A DNA stretch of 64,000 nt from the NCBI GenBank assembly GCA_004297205.1, contig SCUL01000001.1, positions 29,862-93,861 of the forward strand, in the 5' to 3' direction. Below the pieces are notes generated by a model. That model saw only the letters and a list, made by a program, of their open reading frames with translations, was not told the origin of the DNA and ran no database searches. Positions within the stretch are counted from its first letter, which is position 1. Each line of letters begins with the position of its first letter. The DNA comes from Patescibacteria group bacterium. Lineage in GTDB: Bacteria; Patescibacteriota; Patescibacteriia; 2-12-FULL-57-11. The position numbers were made by a program, and so were the translations under genes. Positions 36,165-48,370 of this stretch are shown here, piece by piece.

Positions 36165-37187
36165 TTACAGACGGTCCGAGCGCTCGACGCTCTTGCCGAT
36201 GAGGACGAATCCCAAAAACACCGCGATGTACGGGAGATGGCCGGTCAAGTCAGAGACCGGCAGGAAGATCGCGCTGACGCAAAACAGCAGCGCCAGGAAC
36301 GCGGCGAGCGGACGCAGCAGCCAGCCAGTCAGGAGCAAGCAGGCGATGACGATCTCGACCGCGGCGATCATGAACAGATAGAGGTTTTCCGAGAGCGCCG
36401 GCCAAATTGTGGAACGGAGGATGACCAGCGGATTCCAGGCGGCATGGGCCGCGATCAACGCCAGGTGCAGCTCCGGATGCCACAGCTTGTCGATGCCGCC
36501 CCAGAGCAACGCCAAGCCCGTGACGATGCGCAGGACCGACAACGCCACCGGCTTCATGTGCGCCGTGTCCATGGCGAACACGATGCGCGAGAAGACCGCG
36601 CCGAGCGCCAGCCGCCCGCGGCCCCAGACGAACAGGAAGAAACCGACGCCGAGGAAGAACAGGTTTTCGACGGCCGGAACGCCGTGCAGGGCGAAACTCC
36701 AGACGACGAGCACGATCAGGCCGCCGGCGGCGACCCGCGCGAACAGGCCGAGGACCAACAGCGCCGCGATGACCAGCTGGGCGATGACGAGCGCGGTGCC
36801 GCTGGACGTGTCCGGCAGCGCCAGATGCGGCGCCAGCAGCGTGCGGCCGAGCGCGGACACCGCCAGGACGACCGCCGTGGCCAGGCCGACCGCCAGCGGC
36901 ACGAACGGGGCGGTGCGTGCCAACGACACGGACGCGCCGCGGCCGAACTGCAGGCGGCGCAACCATCCGTCGACGATCCGCGCGGCCACGAGGACGAGGA
37001 GCGCGGCGACGATGGCAATCGGGATGTGCCAGCCGAAACTGCGGAAAAAGGCCGGCGTCTCCCCGACCGCGCCGCCGACGAACCAGCGTTCATGGGCGCG
37101 TGCAACAACGGGAAACGCAAACGCGGCCGCCGTAGCGACCGCCGTCCCCCATCGGCGCAGACGCGCGCGCTGGAGCATACGTGTCAT
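36165..37187 (-). CDS. Polytopic membrane protein with C-terminal DoxX-like domain
   Basis: ...VALSVLRIVTGLALLWGGIDKLWHPE... is DoxX-like. At least 8 predicted TM helices. Start ambiguous (MTRM or MLQR). Confidence 0.5.
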   Translation of the reverse strand: MTRMLQRARLRRWGTAVATAAAFAFPVVARAHERWFVGGAVGETPAFFRSFGWHIPIAIVAALLVLVAARIVDGWLRRLQFGRGASVSLARTAPFVPLAVGLATAVVLAVSALGRTLLAPHLALPDTSSGTALVIAQLVIAALLVLGLFARVAAGGLIVLVVWSFALHGVPAVENLFFLGVGFFLFVWGRGRLALGAVFSRIVFAMDTAHMKPVALSVLRIVTGLALLWGGIDKLWHPELHLALIAAHAAWNPLVILRSTIWPALSENLYLFMIAAVEIVIACLLLTGWLLRPLAAFLALLFCVSAIFLPVSDLTGHLPYIAVFLGFVLIGKSVERSDRL

Positions 37188-37444
37188 TTCTTTGCCGCCC
37201 ACTTCTTAAGCTCTTCGTACGAGACTTCGCCACAGATGCTCTCTCCGGTTTCCGTATTGAAGAAAAACGGCACGCCGCCGCAGATCCCCTTGTCGTAGTC
37301 CTGCATCCTCTGCTGGTTGACATCGTCATGCCAGACTTCGTAACTCTCGACCGCAACGCCGGTTTCCTTCTTCAACCGTTCAATAAGCGGCTTCATGCGC
37401 GTGCAGTGCGGACATTCGCGGCCGTAGAATTCAAGGAGGGGCAT
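37184..37444 (-). CDS. Thioredoxin-fold small protein (CPHC active site)
   Basis: MPLLEFYGRECPHCTRMKPLIERL... is a Trx/Grx-like CxxC protein of 86 aa. Overlaps the start of the DoxX-like gene. Confidence 0.75.
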   Translation of the reverse strand: MPLLEFYGRECPHCTRMKPLIERLKKETGVAVESYEVWHDDVNQQRMQDYDKGICGGVPFFFNTETGESICGEVSYEELKKWAAKK

Positions 37445-37486
37445 AGAAAGGGTGATGCCGCCATCATAGCATCGGCGCGGAAAACC

Positions 37487-37515
37487 AAAAACCCCGCCGT
37501 GAGGCGGGGTTTTTG
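37487..37515. terminator. Bidirectional intrinsic terminator
   Basis: AAAACCCCGCC-GTGA-GGCGGGGTTTTT. Confidence 0.6.
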
Positions 37516-37524
37516 GGCCCTTCG

Positions 37525-37875
37525 TTAGAAGGAGCGTCCCTGCCGGCGGTTGCGGTTGCAATCGCGGCAGTAGACCGGACGGTCGCTGGACGGCTGGAAC
37601 GGGAGTTCCGTCACGTCCGCGCCGCAGGAGGCGCATTTGAGGCCCATTGCGGCCACGTCGACCATCGGCCGGGGCGCGCCGCGGTCGGCGCCGCCCATTG
37701 CCGGGCGGTCGGACTGCTTGCGGTTGCGGTTGCAATCGCGGCAGTAGACCGGGCGGTCCGACGTCGGCTGGAACGGGAGCTCAGTGATCGCCGCTCCGCA
37801 ACCGGCGCATTTGAGGCCCATTGCAGACACGTCGACCATCTGGCGCGCTCCGAAGCTGTTGTTGTCGTAAGCCAT
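37525..37875 (-). CDS. Tandem double zinc-ribbon protein (2 x CxxC-x18-CxxC)
   Basis: Two roughly 50-aa repeats: MVDV(S/A)AMGLKCA(G/S)CGA(A/D)(I/V)TELPFQP(T/S)SDRPVYCRDCNRNR. Confidence 0.65.
   Translation of the reverse strand: MAYDNNSFGARQMVDVSAMGLKCAGCGAAITELPFQPTSDRPVYCRDCNRNRKQSDRPAMGGADRGAPRPMVDVAAMGLKCASCGADVTELPFQPSSDRPVYCRDCNRNRRQGRSF
37541..37840. repeat. Intragenic tandem direct repeat (2 units of about 150 bp, roughly 85-90% identical)
   Basis: ctgc(c/t)(g/t)gcggttgcggttgcaatcgcggcagtagaccgg(a/g)cggtc... appears twice in tandem. Confidence 0.6.
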
Positions 37876-37931
37876 GTTATTGGTGCTACGGTGGTGAATG
37901 ATTCGACCTTTCGCGGACCGTGCACCGTTCT

Positions 37932-37946
37932 CTATCGAATCGATAG
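37932..37946. promoter_or_regulatory. Perfect palindrome CTATCGA-A-TCGATAG, candidate operator upstream of the Zn-ribbon gene
   Basis: 7-bp perfect inverted arms with 1-nt spacer, about 57 nt upstream of the start at 37875. Confidence 0.35.
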
Positions 37947-38014
37947 CTGGTTTGACACGTCTCGCACGCCGAACAAGATATCACATTCCCAGAGGAATGT
38001 CAACCCTTCTGAAA

Positions 38015-38043
38015 GTATAAAAAGAGGACGCTTTTAGGCGTCC
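38015..38043 (-). terminator. Intrinsic terminator after 38069..39220 gene
   Basis: Minus transcript reads GGACGCC-UAAAA-GCGUCC followed by UCUUUUU. Confidence 0.55.
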
Positions 38044-38068
38044 CTCCGCGGGGTTCCGCGGAGACCGG

Positions 38069-42535: not shown

Positions 42536-45500
42536 CTAAAAATTCCTGCCGTCCCCCGGATACTGGACCGACGCCGCGGCGGTCGCCGGATCGTAGTCGG
42601 CGGGAGAGATCACGTCGCTGCCAAAGGCGTAGTTGCCGTAGAGGACGTCATTCACGTCATCGACCATCTGATTCCAATCGGGGCCGTAGATCGTGGCCGC
42701 GATGAGTTCGGAGGTGATCCAACGCAGGATGCCGCCGGAAGCGACGGCGTAGACTTTGGGATCGGTCAGGAACTTCACGAGACTGACGCCGGGCTTCGAG
42801 GTGACGTTTGCGCCGAGCGGGATGGTGGCGAGGTCCGACGCGCTCACGATCTGGATGCCGTTGAAGTCAGGGTACCAGGTGAAATAGACGTTTTCGTTCG
42901 GAAACGCATGGCGCTTGCCGTCGGTGCCGACGTCATAGACGGCGGGGTTGTCCGGCGTTTTGACGAGCGCATGGACAGCGACGTTGAGTCTTTGGAGATT
43001 GTCGAGAAGAGCGGTGGTCGGGGCGTTTGACGGCAGGGGTGCGGAGGTTGCAGGTGCGGGAGAAGCCGAAACCGTTCCTGTGACGGTGAGGAGGATCGTA
43101 TCCGTGTATGTCCCGGATGCGCCGCCGTTTGCGGTGTAGAACCGGACGTACACCGAGTGGTTGCCTGCGGCACAGACGGACAGACCCGTACAAAGGTTCC
43201 AGGATTTCGTTCTCGAGTACGTCTCAAGAGGAATGTTCGTGAAGTCCGCGCTGTTTGAAATCGCCATCGTCGCCGTGTCCGAACCGCCGATGAGCGTCAG
43301 CGTCACCGCCGTGCTCGTCGTGGATGGAGCGCCGCCGTTCACCGAGATGCTGAACCCGGTCATGGGGGGCTGGGGCGCGGAAACGTCGCCCCCGCCGCGG
43401 GTGACAGCCACGGTCGCCTGCCCGAACAAACCGAAGGTCGAGAATTGCGTGGTGGTGCACGTGACGGTATTCGTCTGTTCGTTCACGGAACAGCCCGTGA
43501 GCACGCTCCAAGCGGTCCCGTTCCAGCGGTAGATCCGCAAACTGGATTCATCAATGCCGGAAACATCGGCGGAGGCATACGCAATTCTCAGCGTGATGGG
43601 GTTGTTGAAGGACGTGATGGCCGTCGAAACGCCGGAGAGCGCTTGCAGGCTGTACATGTAACTGCCAATGGCGGAATAACCGCTCGGGGCGCTCGCCGTT
43701 GCAAGCACGGAGGCGGAATCCAGCTGGTTGATCTGGAAATTCGCATCGCTGCCGGAGAACGCCGCGGGCACGGTGAGCGTGATGCCGGTAGCGCCGCTCA
43801 ACAGGTTCATGGTGCCGCCGGCGGCAGCCGTCATGTCGGCGCTCGTTGATGCGGTGACGGCCGCGGAGCCGGTGCATCCGGTCGTCGTGAATGTGGCGTC
43901 CGACCCGGTGCCCAGGTTCGCATACGAGTCATTGGAACGCGGACGGTAATGGTAGGTCGTACACGGCAACAGTCCCGTGAGCGAGACGCTGTGGCTCGTG
44001 ACACGCGGCGATGTATCCGCTTCGGTGGACGTGCTGCCGTAGGCCGTCGTCAATCCGTAGTTGACCATCGAAGACCCGAGCTCGTTTGTCGTCCAAACGA
44101 CTTCCGCTCCCGACGCATTCGGCGTGGCGACAACGGAGGAGAACGTCGGACCAGCGAGATCGAATGCGAGAGAAATTTCCGCCGCGTTCGCCGTCTCATT
44201 CACCGTGGTCGCGTCGTTGTCATACGCAGAAACCGTGAAATAGTAAGTCTGTGCCGTGAGGCCGCTGATGTTCTTCGATAAGACGTTACCGACGTCCACC
44301 GTCGTCGTATAAACGCCCGGGGACGTGCCGTACTTCACCTTGTATCCGGCGACGGTGGCATCCACGGTCGAAAGATTGTTCCATGACAGTTGAACCGTAC
44401 TCGTCACCTGCGATGCGCTGAAACTCTTCGGACTCATGATGGAGAGCGCCCACAATCGCGCCATCTGCGTATGTCCGGCGGCGGTCGGATGCACGGGATC
44501 GCCCCCGTATAAGGCGATGTGGTTGCCGTAATACGTCCAGAAATCAGGCCCGCCGCCGAGTGCGTTGTTGCTCCGCAAGGTGACGATGTTCGGCAGATAA
44601 TTTTCGGTGTACGTATAGACGTTGCTGTAACTCGGTTTGGCGAGCCACATGGACGAACTCGCCGCGCCGTACGTGCTGGCGAGCGTGTTCATGATGGTCT
44701 GCATCTGTGACTGAAAATTCGTCGGTGTGACGGTCGCAATGCCGTCGTTCACGCCGAGGTGGATCAGCCACTTGTTCGGCACCAATGCCGCCTGCCGCGT
44801 CGACCACTGGCCGGTAGCCATGAGCGTGATGTAGTCCGTGGCTTTATAGCTTCCCCAGCCTTCATTCATGACGAACACCGGGTATCCGTAGTAGGTCGTG
44901 AGTTCGTCATTCAGTTCCGACATCCAGCTTTTCTTGTAAGAGAGCGATGTGGGTCCGAACTGGGCGAAGTTGCGATTGTCTGCTGACAGTGAACCCGCTG
45001 GCGCGTCTATCCAGCTCGTCACGGCCGTGGCGCCGTAATCCGTTCCGTAATACCCCTCCGTGATGGAATCGCCGATCGCCGTAATGATGTCGCCGATGCC
45101 GATGCTTGTAGCAGTGTCCTGATCGCCGGCGCCGGTCTGCACCACCTGCGAAGAATTCACGACATGCGCATCCAGGGTATACGTACCCTTGGCAAGCCCA
45201 GTAAAACTCGCGGTGAACGGCGAACTCATGTCGTACAACGACTGCTCGGTGCCGAGCCCCTCATTCAAAATGAACTTCACGCCGCCTCCGGCCGGTAAGA
45301 CGGTGCTGCCGACCGTTGCTGCGACCGCAAGCGTCGTGCTCGTCTGGATGTACGGGATGTAAAAGGTACCGCCCTCGTCGGTGATCGCGACGGTCGCGGT
45401 CTGAGGAGAAAGCGCGACGCTGCGAGACGGCGACGTGATGCTGATCGCGTCACTCGACGTGCCGTAGGCGTAAAAATTGTCGAACGAACCCGCGACCACA

Positions 45501-47014
45501 TTCACCCCGGCGGCAACGTATCCGGAAGCAAACGGACTTGAACCGTCCGTGTACGTCATGAGCGGCGCGCCGCGCGTTCCGCCCACCGGGTAGATGTAGG
45601 CTTGCAACACGGGGTTTCCGCTCGGATTGTCGACGGCTTCGAGCTCCATCGTGTACCACACGCCGTTCGTCAGGGCGTAGCTCGCCGTGGTCAACGTCGT
45701 ATTGCCCGGTGCGCCGGCCGCGTGTTTCAACAAGTACCACGAGCTGGCATCGGCATGATGCAGCAGGTACCCGCCCCCGTTGCCCGTCGCCGCGGTTTTT
45801 CTCACCCACAACTGATGGTTATCTCCCGTTGATTCCAAAAAATCCACTTTCACCCGTTCGTTGACCCAGGCCGACTGGCCGTTTGCGATTTGATTCGTAT
45901 CGAACGTCCCAACGCCGCTCGTCTCACTCACCACTTTACCGCCGTTTCCCGCGGCGACCGCCCACGTTCCTGCGCCGACCGCTTGCCAGCTGTTTTGGCC
46001 GGCAATGGCCGCGGTGTTCAGCGCGTCAAACGTGTCCGAAAAAATCAAGTCCAACGGCTTTGAATTCGGATTGTTCGACGAAAGCCCTGTCCCGTCCGAT
46101 GTCACCGCCTTGACGTTGAACTCGTATCGGACGCCGTTCGTCAATCCCGTGACGGTCGCCGTTGCGGAAGCGCTCGTCCCATCGTCGAAGGTCGTCCATG
46201 TTGTTGCACCGTATATGCGGTATTGGATGACGTAATCTGTTACTGGATTGGCCGTCGAAGGCGCCGTCCAGTTCAGCAACATCGACCCGTCAAGACTGCT
46301 TGCCGTGAGGTCGGTAACGACCGCATCCGTGCCGGTCACGGAGACATCATCAAAGGTGCTCGCCGTCGTTGATGACTCGAGAAAAATCGGCTTATTCGTA
46401 ATGCTCGTGTCAACGGTCATGGAACACTGCGAGACAAGCCCGGCGCCCGTGTCCATCAACACATCGAAACCCGTTGCCGTCACGAGGAGTTTGTACGTCG
46501 CACCGCTGGTGAGCGTTCCACAACTTAGATTTGAATCTACTAACAATCCGTTGCTCCAGTGCAACGCATAAATCGGACCGGATGTTCCTGAGAGATCGAT
46601 AATATATGCCTTGGTGCCCGCTGCTTGAAAATTATAATCACCGTATCCAAGCAACTGAGCGGACCCCGGCGTCATCTTTGCGACGATGCTCAAATTCGTT
46701 CTTTGGAACGTACTCACGGAATAAACCGCCGTGTTCCCCCATGTTCCGGAAAGACTGTTTGAGACGGATAAGCTGCCGTTCTGCGAAATATTCGCGCCGG
46801 GATCGACGACCGTCCACTTGGCGGTGTCGATCGTCGAACCCGTGAACGTATCCGTCAAAAGAGTTGCTGCAAAAGTGAACGGTGCATGATGAAGGAAAGC
46901 GACGACGCTACCGATGACAAACAATGCGCCGAATACAAATACGCGTAACTTCGAGGACCCCCCCCCCGCGGTTTTTGCCGTTTTTTGATCATAATTCCGT
47001 TGCAACGACCGCAA
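42536..47014 (-). CDS. Giant secreted surface protein (1492 aa) with multiple FN3-like modules and an SGNH/GDSL hydrolase domain
   Basis: TTG-initiated ORF. Signal peptide ...LRVFVFGALFVIGSVVAFLHHAPFTFA. IGDSITEGYYG (GDSL block I). Several about 90-aa modules with ...YEFNVKAVT... / ...YYFTVSAYD... FN3 signatures. Confidence 0.8.
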   Translation of the reverse strand: MRSLQRNYDQKTAKTAGGGSSKLRVFVFGALFVIGSVVAFLHHAPFTFAATLLTDTFTGSTIDTAKWTVVDPGANISQNGSLSVSNSLSGTWGNTAVYSVSTFQRTNLSIVAKMTPGSAQLLGYGDYNFQAAGTKAYIIDLSGTSGPIYALHWSNGLLVDSNLSCGTLTSGATYKLLVTATGFDVLMDTGAGLVSQCSMTVDTSITNKPIFLESSTTASTFDDVSVTGTDAVVTDLTASSLDGSMLLNWTAPSTANPVTDYVIQYRIYGATTWTTFDDGTSASATATVTGLTNGVRYEFNVKAVTSDGTGLSSNNPNSKPLDLIFSDTFDALNTAAIAGQNSWQAVGAGTWAVAAGNGGKVVSETSGVGTFDTNQIANGQSAWVNERVKVDFLESTGDNHQLWVRKTAATGNGGGYLLHHADASSWYLLKHAAGAPGNTTLTTASYALTNGVWYTMELEAVDNPSGNPVLQAYIYPVGGTRGAPLMTYTDGSSPFASGYVAAGVNVVAGSFDNFYAYGTSSDAISITSPSRSVALSPQTATVAITDEGGTFYIPYIQTSTTLAVAATVGSTVLPAGGGVKFILNEGLGTEQSLYDMSSPFTASFTGLAKGTYTLDAHVVNSSQVVQTGAGDQDTATSIGIGDIITAIGDSITEGYYGTDYGATAVTSWIDAPAGSLSADNRNFAQFGPTSLSYKKSWMSELNDELTTYYGYPVFVMNEGWGSYKATDYITLMATGQWSTRQAALVPNKWLIHLGVNDGIATVTPTNFQSQMQTIMNTLASTYGAASSSMWLAKPSYSNVYTYTENYLPNIVTLRSNNALGGGPDFWTYYGNHIALYGGDPVHPTAAGHTQMARLWALSIMSPKSFSASQVTSTVQLSWNNLSTVDATVAGYKVKYGTSPGVYTTTVDVGNVLSKNISGLTAQTYYFTVSAYDNDATTVNETANAAEISLAFDLAGPTFSSVVATPNASGAEVVWTTNELGSSMVNYGLTTAYGSTSTEADTSPRVTSHSVSLTGLLPCTTYHYRPRSNDSYANLGTGSDATFTTTGCTGSAAVTASTSADMTAAAGGTMNLLSGATGITLTVPAAFSGSDANFQINQLDSASVLATASAPSGYSAIGSYMYSLQALSGVSTAITSFNNPITLRIAYASADVSGIDESSLRIYRWNGTAWSVLTGCSVNEQTNTVTCTTTQFSTFGLFGQATVAVTRGGGDVSAPQPPMTGFSISVNGGAPSTTSTAVTLTLIGGSDTATMAISNSADFTNIPLETYSRTKSWNLCTGLSVCAAGNHSVYVRFYTANGGASGTYTDTILLTVTGTVSASPAPATSAPLPSNAPTTALLDNLQRLNVAVHALVKTPDNPAVYDVGTDGKRHAFPNENVYFTWYPDFNGIQIVSASDLATIPLGANVTSKPGVSLVKFLTDPKVYAVASGGILRWITSELIAATIYGPDWNQMVDDVNDVLYGNYAFGSDVISPADYDPATAAASVQYPGDGRNF

Positions 47015-47091
47015 TGATTAGAGTATAACAAAATTCCAATCTCCATAAAAGGTTGTCCTTTGGGCATTTTTCGCGTATCTTTCCGTCGTAC

Positions 47092-47165
47092 TCCGGGGTC
47101 GTCTAATGGTAGGACATGGGCCTTTGAAGCCCAGTATCATGGTTCGAATCCATGTCCCGGAACCA
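47092..47165 (+). tRNA. tRNA-Gln (anticodon UUG)
   Basis: Cloverleaf: acceptor tccgggg/tcccgga, D-arm gtct..ggac, anticodon arm tgggc-cuUUGaa-gccca, T-arm catgg-ttcgaat-ccatg, discriminator A, encoded CCA. Confidence 0.9.
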
Positions 47166-47197
47166 AAAGAGCGCCACAGCTGTGGCGCTCTTTTCGT
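47166..47197 (+). terminator. Intrinsic terminator after tRNA-Gln
   Basis: AGAGCGCCACA-GC-TGTGGCGCTCT followed by TTTCGTTTG. Confidence 0.65.
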
Positions 47198-47279
47198 TTG
47201 AGAAAAAGAAGAACTTGCCACTCGAAAGCATTTGCCTCGTACCGCCGAGGCCTGTAGAGACATCAGTCGATGGGTCAAG

Positions 47280-47800
47280 CGCGGACTCTAGATTGTGACA
47301 AATCAACCTAAGAGATACCCTGCTCACTGAAAGGTGTTAACTTGTCTCTAGACTATGACCGCCGACCCATACTTTCAGCCAGTGTCGGGAGACGAGTTGG
47401 CTGATACTTTCCGGCAAAAATGTGGCGACTCCCCGATCGCAACATATGATACCGATTATCAGTTCAATTATCTGAATCTCACTCTACTTCTTGGAATAGT
47501 GATTGTTGCTGCTTTGATAATTCACAAAAACCGTTCAAGAGTTGCAAAGCATGCAATGAGGATTGGAATATTTCTAAAAAGCCATATTTTGACTTCTCTC
47601 TTAATAATCTTGGCAATCACGTTGTCCTTCTCAATTGCCGCAGGCAACTTGGAGCTCAGGAATCGGATGGAAGAAAGTCTTGGACGCATTCCCGATCACT
47701 TTTACTCGGTTAACCATACCCCAACAAAGGCATACTTGGATGCTTATCAGGAATATTGGGGGTGCGGTAACAGCTTCTAAAAGACCTCCTCGGAACCAAA
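47280..47800. other. Low-GC islet (about 40% GC against about 68% flanks) immediately 3' of tRNA-Gln
   Basis: Visibly AT-rich 60-nt blocks (30-45% GC) spanning one small ORF. Short imperfect direct repeats ctctagattgtgac (47286) and ctctagactatgac (47346). Confidence 0.4.
47355..47780 (+). CDS. Low-GC small membrane protein (141 aa), likely horizontally acquired
   Basis: ATG start. Two TM helices (LTLLLGIVIVAALII and ILTSLLIILAITLSFSIAAG). Codon usage clearly AT-rich, unlike its neighbours. Confidence 0.5.
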   Translation: MTADPYFQPVSGDELADTFRQKCGDSPIATYDTDYQFNYLNLTLLLGIVIVAALIIHKNRSRVAKHAMRIGIFLKSHILTSLLIILAITLSFSIAAGNLELRNRMEESLGRIPDHFYSVNHTPTKAYLDAYQEYWGCGNSF

Positions 47801-47830
47801 AGCGCCTCGCATCTTGCGAGGCGCTTTTTG
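47798..47830. terminator. Bidirectional intrinsic terminator
   Basis: AAAGCGCCTCGC-ATCTT-GCGAGGCGCTTT followed by TTG, flanked by an A-run and a T-run. Confidence 0.6.
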
Positions 47831-47851
47831 CATAAAAAACACCCGCCGCAG

Positions 47852-48370
47852 TCAGCGGAGGGGCATGCGGTAGACGTGCGTGTCCACGCGCTCGTAGCCG
47901 AGGTTGACGTAGAACTGATGTGCATCGGCGCGGTGCGCGCGGCTGGTGAGCTGCATGCGCACGACGTTCTCGGCCTTGGCGACGCGATGCGCAATCGTCA
48001 TGAGCGTCCGGGCGATCCCCTGGCGCTGATGGGACGCGGTGACGATGACGTTGTGGATCGTCGCGTAGCGCCCGTGCATCGACTCGTGGATGCACAGCGT
48101 GACCATGCCGACAACATGTCCACGCCAGTCTTCGGCAACGAAGACGCGCTCCTTCTCGACCGTCGCCGCGATCGCCTCGGGCTTCAGCTCCACGTCGCGA
48201 CCGGACAACTCGCACAGCAGTTTCCAGACGTCCTTGGTAGAACTCTCGTCCAACGGCACATCATGGCGGTCGATCTCCTGCGGCCAGGAGTCGACACGGG
48301 ACAGCTCTGGCCGGGACAGATACCCGTAGCTGAGCACTTTTGTAACCCAGAGCGGAATCTCTTCCGACAT
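47852..48370 (-). CDS. GNAT family N-acetyltransferase
   Basis: ...VVGMVTLCIHESMHGRYATIHNVIVTASHQRQGIARTLM... contains GNAT motif A (Q/RxxGxA-like). Confidence 0.85.
   Translation of the reverse strand: MSEEIPLWVTKVLSYGYLSRPELSRVDSWPQEIDRHDVPLDESSTKDVWKLLCELSGRDVELKPEAIAATVEKERVFVAEDWRGHVVGMVTLCIHESMHGRYATIHNVIVTASHQRQGIARTLMTIAHRVAKAENVVRMQLTSRAHRADAHQFYVNLGYERVDTHVYRMPLR

Follow-up and report, generated by a model that had tools for sequence, protein, structure and literature searches.

The stretch of DNA analysed here, called the window throughout, comprises 64,000 nucleotides of contig SCUL01000001.1 from a Patescibacteria group bacterium and has a G+C content of ~65%. On its reverse strand lies a gene for a 116-residue protein that consists of two CxxC-x18-CxxC modules (MVDVSAMGLKCAGCGAAITELPFQPTSDRPVYCRDCNRNRKQ and MVDVAAMGLKCASCGADVTELPFQPSSDRPVYCRDCNRNRRQ) joined by a low-complexity linker, and upstream of this gene lie a predicted promoter and a predicted leader containing a perfect palindrome and a short motif (Table 1). 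An earlier sequence-only reading of the same DNA had described the reading frame with its ATG start and amino-acid sequence, the tandem double zinc-binding module, an intragenic repeat and the palindrome; these observed features were confirmed, and its interpretation was partly supported. Specifically, we find that the protein is an ordinary member of a named and catalogued family that is functionally uncharacterised, that genes of this family are preceded by leaders with a common motif, AAAGGUCG, and that the palindrome, for which an operator function had been proposed, is probably part of the transcribed leader.

The two-module protein is recognised by Pfam PF23477 (zf_Tbcl_2; 91.3 bits against a cut-off of 27, E=2.9e-26) and by NCBIfam TIGR04272 (CxxC-x17-CxxC domain-containing protein; 91.4 bits against a cut-off of 36, E=2e-26), in two stretches each. 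The module, which had been left outside any named family, thus matches a known one far above both cut-offs, an outcome that the earlier reading had itself listed as refuting, although this family is neither FmdB nor rubredoxin. FmdB/Zn_ribbon_8 proteins are likewise small and bacterial with a CxxC...CxxC pattern, and membership in that family was rejected on scores below the cut-offs (PF09723, 21.1 bits against 34.4; TIGR02605, 16.6 against 31.3); the rubredoxin family was absent among the Pfam and NCBIfam matches up to E=10. Like the window protein, members of TIGR04272/PF23477 are small, and tandem modules are frequent among them. The family name specifies a spacer of 17 residues while both modules of the window protein have 18, as do 239 of 239 modules in the 120 closest homologues; the hidden Markov model tolerates this one-residue shift. 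The Patescibacteria subgroup also differs from the rest of the family by a signature of its own, (M)xDVxxMGLxCxxCGxxIxELPFxPxxDRPVYCRDCNRNRR. A tblastn search with module 1 as the query returned exactly two copies in the window, which share 86% protein identity, and all eight cysteine columns are invariant in an alignment of 54 sequences. Because dN/dS relative to the closely related locus L001 is ~0.07 in module 1, documenting strong purifying selection, we conclude that this is a genuine protein-coding gene. In the literature searched for TIGR04272, PF23477 and related terms, the family had no functional study, and the only experimental work that came up concerned small proteins of Methanosarcina mazei with this domain. 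Two of them, A00184 and A01980, were found to be zinc-bound by inductively coupled plasma mass spectrometry (PMC12704099), and one zinc ion per module, held by the four cysteines, would be expected in the window protein.

The modules had been labelled zinc ribbons. Pfam instead describes the fold as a probable treble clef, and an AlphaFold2 model built with 54 homologues and its structural neighbours are consistent with that description. The model has a mean pLDDT of 72 (72-83 in module 1) and a disordered linker, and it shows two short beta-hairpins per module followed by a helix that starts at the second CxxC. A Foldseek search of the model against the Protein Data Bank (PDB) gave no match with E <1; the best, non-significant local alignments were with LIM, PHD and ClpX zinc-binding domains, all of which are fingers of the treble-clef type. 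The protein is best explained as two treble-clef-like modules joined by a disordered linker, with a basic, Arg-rich segment after each module. A sequence-profile search of the PDB returned only matches at the level of the Cys pattern (C2H2 linkers and GATA fingers), among them a weak match (E=0.016) to GATA-3, whose double finger aligned to modules 1 and 2. GATA fingers are treble clefs of the form C-x2-C-x17-C-x2-C, so their spacing is one residue off that of the window module, and both share a treble-clef-like knuckle, hairpin and helix; moreover, GATA-1 and GATA-3 have tandem double fingers and a basic segment after the second CxxC, as does the window protein. However, GATA fingers are eukaryotic DNA binders, and the similarity is largely one of the Cys pattern. 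Membership was rejected with the Pfam GATA-like model KDM6_GATAL below its cut-off (24.1 bits against 27), the PDB profile match at the E value above and Foldseek without a match at E <1; Pfam gave no GATA match, and no score reached any curated threshold. The resemblance is therefore one of pattern and fold class. PADLOC returned nothing for the window protein, and PHROGs only weak matches of unknown function.

The zinc-finger gene appears to be transcribed on its own. The predicted sigma-70-type promoter matches the consensus at 10 of 12 positions, has an extended -10 element and is the sole promoter-like site in 1.2 kb (0.1 in shuffled sequences); from its position, transcription is predicted to start near 37968, which would give a leader of ~93 nt. 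Because the gene has its own promoter and its own terminator, and because the upstream gene ends in a terminator-like hairpin of its own, we regard it as a separate transcription unit. In the DNA upstream of 71 related genes, taken from contigs of genomes and metagenomes, equivalent near-consensus TTGACA-17-TATAAT promoters, many with the extended -10 TG, were present at 57 of the 71 loci, well ahead of the ATG, with a median leader length of 127 nt. Most of the genes called in close relatives (e.g. L021, L022, L103 and L104) have a -10-like box ~7-19 nt before their ATG and no Shine-Dalgarno sequence, and the genes beside the zinc-finger gene look leaderless or nearly so; since their boxes lie so close to the start codon, the long leader is exceptional here. 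Likewise, the thioredoxin-like gene that follows on the same strand (37184-37468 region; ATG at 37444) has a TATGAT at 37468-37463. A missing Shine-Dalgarno sequence was considered as a special feature of the zinc-finger gene and dropped, since the sequence is absent from most of the neighbouring genes of close relatives too.

Table 1 Features of the zinc-finger locus, in window coordinates
Feature	Position	Strand	Basis and remarks
Intrinsic terminator 3' of the gene	37485..37516	-	Inverted-repeat and terminator scans; stem of 14 bp without mismatch, loop of 4 nt, T-run
Coding sequence of the 116-aa two-module zinc-finger protein	37525..37875	-	Open reading frame list; ATG at 37875, TAA stop at 37525-37527
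Intragenic direct DNA repeat (37540-37671 and 37714-37845)	37540..37845		132 nt each, 83% identical
Module 2 (aa 71-112), CxxC-x18-CxxC	37540..37665	-	tblastn self-match; predicted Zn ligands C81/C84/C103/C106
Low-complexity linker (aa 55-70), QSDRPAMGGADRGAPR	37666..37713	-	Predicted disordered; pLDDT <50 at residues 57-66
Module 1 (aa 13-54), CxxC-x18-CxxC	37714..37839	-	tblastn self-match; predicted Zn ligands C23/C26/C45/C48
Predicted leader stem-loop P2 (GGUGCACGGU...ACCGUAGCACC)	37882..37926	-	RNAfold, in the leader and as segment alone; -15.9 kcal/mol
Leader motif AAAGGTCG	37904..37911	-	One other copy in 64 kb, which is chance level
Palindrome CTATCGAATCGATAG / predicted leader hairpin P1	37932..37946	-	CUAUCG-AUU-CGAUAG on the mRNA strand; -3.9 kcal/mol
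Predicted sigma-70-type promoter	37975..38003	-	TTGACA at 38003-37998, 17-nt spacer, TG-n-TATCTT with the -10 at 37980-37975
Terminator-like hairpin of the upstream gene	38016..38044	-	GGGACGCCTAAAAGCGTCCT followed by the T-run CTTTTTAT

The leaders carry a motif that is specific to this gene family. Among 35 non-redundant leaders, GGTCG was present in 29 (shuffle mean 5.0), AAAGGTC in 22 (1.2) and AAGGTCG in 20 (0.7), while no 7-mer occurred in more than 15 of 35 shuffled leaders, and the motif mostly lies 30-60 nt before the ATG. When we counted the window's version, AAAGGTCG, on both strands of all fetched loci (~330 kb), ~34 of 43 occurrences were in the leader of a zinc-finger gene and on the coding strand. 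Rfam searches of the leader region at a permissive threshold, of the whole window and of 20 related loci returned only terminator-like chance matches and tRNAs, and none of these was for the leader.

The leaders are also more stably folded than expected, with a mean z of -2.56 relative to dinucleotide shuffles (n=34, p=6e-11) and 85% of the leaders below -1. In the window, the predicted stem-loop P2 contains AAAGGUCGAAUC and stops 6 nt short of the AUG, and the pairing of its closing stem is kept among relatives as the sequence changes: GGUGC/GCACC in the window, AGUGC/GCACU in L021, UACGUGC/GCACGUA in L002, GGGGACA/UGUCCUC in L003 and GGGACAAA/UUUGUCCU in L103. In the clade of the window gene, the leader is shorter than in the best-structured class and has the order P1 then P2. 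That class (L004-L007, L010, L011 and L023) was compared by single-sequence folds, in which a 5' GGUAA pairs with UUACC and closes a multi-helix domain, a small hairpin presents the AAA of the motif, a second hairpin with a sequence that is completely different between members lies 15-25 nt before the AUG, and a short helix takes in the AUG itself.

We note several points that weigh against reading these leaders as one structured RNA family to which the window leader belongs. The window leader is not significantly more stable than its shuffles (z -0.59 to -0.83), and those of L021 and L002 have z values of +0.9. From MAFFT alignments of the best-structured class, RNAalifold recovered only a 3-bp helix, because such alignments take no account of structure. 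The covariance model made from seven leaders of this class matched its own class only (L043, E=0.14; L037, E=2.9, at the correct place) and not the window leader, so that relatedness across classes rests on the short motif and the shared architecture and is putative. The transcription start site, moreover, rests on a consensus scan, and the covariation in the clade of the window gene on only about five independent sequences. Therefore, our working suggestion that the leaders form one RNA family draws on the motif, the promoter-leader-gene arrangement, and helices that would be analogous.

Other leader classes have features of their own. In Parcubacteria-type leaders of one-module genes (L012, L013, L015, L040, L053 and L075), AAGTCGACAAGGCAAAAACC replaces AAAGGTCG; it resembles AAGTCGTAACAAGGTAACC, a universal segment at the 3' end of 16S rRNA, and this resemblance, seen post hoc and in this one class, could hint at rRNA mimicry by the leader, an idea that we did not retain. 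Magasanikbacteria-type leaders (L025-L038) contain three mutually complementary elements, TTGGGtAAC, GTTCCCAAAAT and CATTTTGGGAAC. Both neighbours are possible pairing partners of the middle element, and a nearby CTCAAAA is a further partner of the third. Compensating changes are present in L037 and L038, and the layout looks like a switch that encloses the AGGTCGA motif. In AT-rich one-module genes (L041, L042, L085, L092, L097, L099 and L101), the motif is the 3' arm of a hairpin (e.g. GCGACC...GGTCGC) followed by a T-run, an arrangement that resembles an intrinsic terminator or attenuator within the leader.

The palindrome is a minor, lineage-specific element. As reported earlier, it is perfect over 15 nt and lies 57 nt upstream of the start codon, measured from its end at 37932 to the A; its arms are 7 nt long and flank one central base. 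Counted along the predicted transcript, it would span ~+22 to +36, which puts it 29 nt past the -10 hexamer and not over the promoter. Comparable palindromes (arms of 7 nt or more, 0-4 nt apart) are common in the window (66 versus ~48 in shuffles), and the palindrome alone is therefore weak evidence; nonetheless, the 193-nt intergenic region is enriched in inverted repeats, with three such palindromes where shuffles have at least one in 5.5% and at least two in 1.1% of cases. Among the relatives, only L001 and L022 (92-94% protein identity) have the identical palindrome. In its place, L021 (84% identity) has CGATCGAACGATCG, which can form the hairpin CGAUC-GAAC-GAUCG, and L003 and L103 (~74% identity) have CTATCGTTTCGATGG and CTAATCGTTTCGATGGG, whose arms are complementary as RNA only if a G-U pair is allowed (one such pair in L003, CUAUCG-UUU-CGAUGG); L002 (81% identity) has no equivalent. 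Thus, a hairpin can still form in three of the four sub-clades although its sequence has changed, which, on thin evidence from about five independent sequences, is more consistent with a structural element of RNA or DNA than with a site for a sequence-specific repressor. We consider it probable that the palindrome is part of the transcribed leader and not an operator.

We also considered that the palindrome has no function of its own and is a clade-specific inverted repeat in a variable segment of the leader, arising by chance or drifting neutrally, in which case function would be confined to the AAAGGUCG region and to the stem ahead of the start codon. The frequency of palindromes of this size fits such a view, as do the low predicted stability of P1 (-3.9 kcal/mol), the unremarkable folding energies of the leaders in this clade, and L002, which lacks P1 and still has the promoter, the motif and P2; the weakness of P1 and its absence from L002 are likewise points against assigning it a role in the leader. 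What argues for a role is that a hairpin-forming sequence recurs at the same position in three of the four sub-clades, and that the better-structured leader class has a variable hairpin, flanked by conserved internal loops, at a comparable place. On balance, a palindrome without function appears to us rather improbable.

The sequence-only reading had proposed that the palindrome is the operator of a dimeric repressor, and one might add the GATA-like two-finger protein itself as the ligand; in either case, bound protein would block RNA polymerase shortly after initiation. The palindrome is perfect (7+1+7 nt) and unique in the window, it lies in an intergenic region enriched in inverted repeats, it is exactly conserved in L001 and L022, and the different sequence in L021 is again symmetric at the same place, a symmetric change in both arms being equally expected of a co-evolving operator and thus counting against our preference for a leader element. 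Moreover, the ends of the palindrome read as inverted GATA cores (CTATC...GATAG), and the module has a GATA-like Cys spacing and the weak profile match to the GATA-3 double finger. However, the site would lie downstream of the predicted start and off the -35 and -10 elements, its sequence is not kept beyond relatives with at least 92% identity and L002 lacks the element altogether, the G-U pair of L003 works in RNA and is a mismatch in DNA, and the GATA cores are lost in L021, L003 and L103. As far as 64 kb allows, the palindrome does not recur (no second copy was found in the window with up to three mismatches), and the conserved neighbourhood contains no linked repressor gene. We therefore regard an operator at this site as unlikely, in line with the outcomes that the earlier reading had named as refuting it, and the palindrome as more probably the leader hairpin P1.

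Two further inverted repeats lie upstream. ACATTCC-N4-GGAATGT is located in the promoter spacer (37983-38000); its arms are kept in L001 and L022 while the central bases differ, and three of the seven arm bases simply belong to the promoter elements, namely to the last bases of the -35 hexamer and to the TGT of the extended -10. As a candidate operator, should there be one in this region, it would be better placed than the palindrome reported earlier. In addition, a perfect 8-bp inverted repeat, CTCCGCGG-GGTT-CCGCGGAG, directly follows the stop codon of the upstream 398-aa gene (38044-38063) and overlaps the start of that gene's terminator-like hairpin; L022 has an 8-bp inverted repeat, TTCCGCGG-AATG-CCGCGGAA, at the equivalent position, and none was detected in L001.

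With respect to the two modules, the direct DNA repeat that had been reported exists, and its description as ~150 bp with 85-90% identity was slightly generous: the copies align gap-free over 132 nt with 83% identity at a spacing of 174 nt. Over the 126-nt module core, modules 1 and 2 share 83.3% of positions (76% of third positions), with dS 0.40 and dN 0.14. The sequences indicate that the two-module architecture is old in the lineage of the window. All members of the window clade (the window gene, L001, L022, L021, L002, L003 and L103) have two modules; the linker (…QSDRPAMG…APRP) is recognisable in the window gene, L001, L021 and L002, so that the duplication is older than their divergence, and its motif SDRPAMG is common to the window protein, P0001, P0003, L021 and L002. 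Consistently, the dS of 0.40 between the modules of the window gene is no less than the dS of 0.15-0.33 to orthologues that are 92-94% identical, and between the modules of L001 and L022 it reaches 1.1-1.8. The suggestion of a recent tandem duplication with an unstable number of copies could call on the 83% identity of the DNA repeat, on one- and two-module genes behind very similar leaders (L010 and L011 versus L004-L007 and L023) and on family members with one to five modules, and with seven of seven clade members sharing two modules and a homologous linker, and with dS values that are not below those of the nearest orthologues, we consider it very unlikely.

How, then, have the modules remained similar? 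In L021 they share 94% DNA identity, with dS 0.19 versus at least 0.46 to any orthologue. Compared with every relative beyond its closest clade, the window gene has 2-8 sites at which both modules share a lineage-specific residue (e.g. GLKC/GLKC versus GLTC/GLTC versus GLSC/GLSC) and 0-1 sites of orthologous module-specific difference. The Magasanikbacteria-like group shows the reverse pattern, with an identity of 62-72% between the two modules of one protein and of 90-100% between orthologous modules. The most economical reading would be that, in the Uhrbacteria-like lineage, the module core has at times undergone gene conversion within the gene, so that the DNA similarity of the two modules would reflect strong purifying selection together with episodic homogenisation. 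Parallel selection on both modules could mimic gene conversion and speaks against this reading. Concerted modules in one sub-lineage and orthologous divergence in another would make a neat small case of gene conversion.

The family is widespread in Patescibacteria. A database search gave 792 relatives at E <=1e-3, almost all of them from Patescibacteria (Uhrbacteria, Magasanikbacteria, Parcubacteria and others among the named relatives); the closest locus, at 94% identity, is from a metagenome-assembled genome named 'Patescibacteria group bacterium', and 119 of the 120 closest homologues have two modules. By its G+C content, the window thus belongs to a high-G+C member of the group, and the exact sequence of its protein had no match on record. 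A scan of metagenomes counted 587 relatives. A single-module search against 1.8 billion representatives found 735 proteins; of the best 148, 30 have one module, 96 have two, 11 have three, 2 have four and 2 have five. The copy-number variation that had been anticipated therefore exists, with one to five modules across the family and two as the commonest state. One-module genes (~60 aa) are present in related genomes, and because the leaders of the one-module genes L010 and L011 are clearly alignable with those of the two-module genes L004-L007 and L023, copy number changes on an evolutionary scale. In ten longer family members, Pfam identified no informative domain fusions, only extra copies of the same module. 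Outside the modules, the 148 representatives consist of 11% R, 11% K and 11% G and include RD/RS-like repeats. Several members (L047, L062, L064, L081, L084 and L096, and P0126, P0137, P0142, P0164 and P0214) have, around the zinc modules, long RGG or GGYGGRS repeats, repeats rich in Arg and Asp, segments resembling coiled coils, and (AKK)n tails rich in lysine. RNA binding is an established role of RGG repeats (PMC4275035), and with RGG-rich or lysine-rich tails and linkers in homologues, the earlier guess of a small nucleic-acid-binding zinc protein was a reasonable one.

There is no conserved operon around the gene: the neighbourhood is kept only among close relatives, where the gene order is a MutY-like glycosylase, a hypothetical gene, the zinc-finger gene, a small thioredoxin-like gene and a DoxX-like membrane protein, and it is different in L104, L105 and others. 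Elsewhere in the window, the G+C content falls to 0.51 at 46000-48000, versus ~0.65 in the remainder; this dip sits at the start of a 1492-aa open reading frame (42536-47014, reverse strand) and beside a tRNA gene (47092-47162).

Taken together, we propose a model in which the stand-alone unit encodes a two-finger protein that would bind nucleic acid, with RNA a likelier partner than DNA. The palindrome would form the small hairpin P1 in the leader, just 5' of the larger P2, and P2 would present the motif AAAGGUCG and end immediately before the start codon. Expression would then be controlled through the leader after transcription has started, and the likeliest mechanism would be autoregulation, in which the protein binds the leader of its own mRNA, or else a structural switch; the analogy is with cspA and with ribosomal-protein leaders. 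As a whole, a zinc-finger RNA-binding protein under leader-mediated, possibly autoregulatory control would be the best explanation of the locus, and we lean slightly towards it. Family membership, the anatomy of the repeat and the conservation of the motif and of the promoter and leader architecture are shown by the data, whereas zinc binding by this protein, its preference for RNA over DNA, binding to its own leader, the transcription start and the regulatory role are inferences. With a strong predicted promoter and a gene-specific leader motif, the model is most coherent if the small RNA-binding protein is abundant and regulates its own production by way of the leader; by itself, this more specific version seems to us possible rather than probable.

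In Escherichia coli, cspA encodes a small abundant nucleic-acid-binding protein and has a long, conserved and structured 5' untranslated region through which it is subject to post-transcriptional and autoregulatory control. The window gene resembles cspA in being monocistronic, in encoding a small basic protein that is a putative nucleic-acid binder and in its strong predicted promoter, and its leader in being unusually long, in containing a short conserved box and in the structure predicted beside the start codon. However, CspA has an OB fold while the window protein has zinc fingers, and the leaders share no sequence similarity. The leader is also reminiscent of ribosomal-protein leaders, which are cis-acting, belong to one gene family and have conserved single-stranded motifs between variable helices. 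Unlike those leaders, many of which are in Rfam, the window leader has no Rfam match at gathering or permissive thresholds; moreover, the gene lies outside any ribosomal operon and its product is not a known ribosomal protein.

The most useful outcome of this analysis is the family-wide AAAGGUCG leader, which appears to be undescribed. Tentatively, we suggest that it represents a new class of cis-regulatory RNA that precedes CxxC-x18-CxxC genes across Patescibacteria and is bound by the encoded protein, which we hold to be doubtful as it stands. If true, the protein would be a functional analogue of CspA in these reduced bacteria, an RNA-binding protein or RNA chaperone that is abundant and autoregulated, and the palindrome would be one lineage's version of a variable helix in the leader RNA. 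The family is among the commonest small stand-alone genes in Patescibacteria, a group with minimal genomes and few known regulators; the 8-nt motif, being highly specific and not in Rfam, offers a route to a first function for the family, and the leader may be the first post-transcriptional control element described for Patescibacteria.

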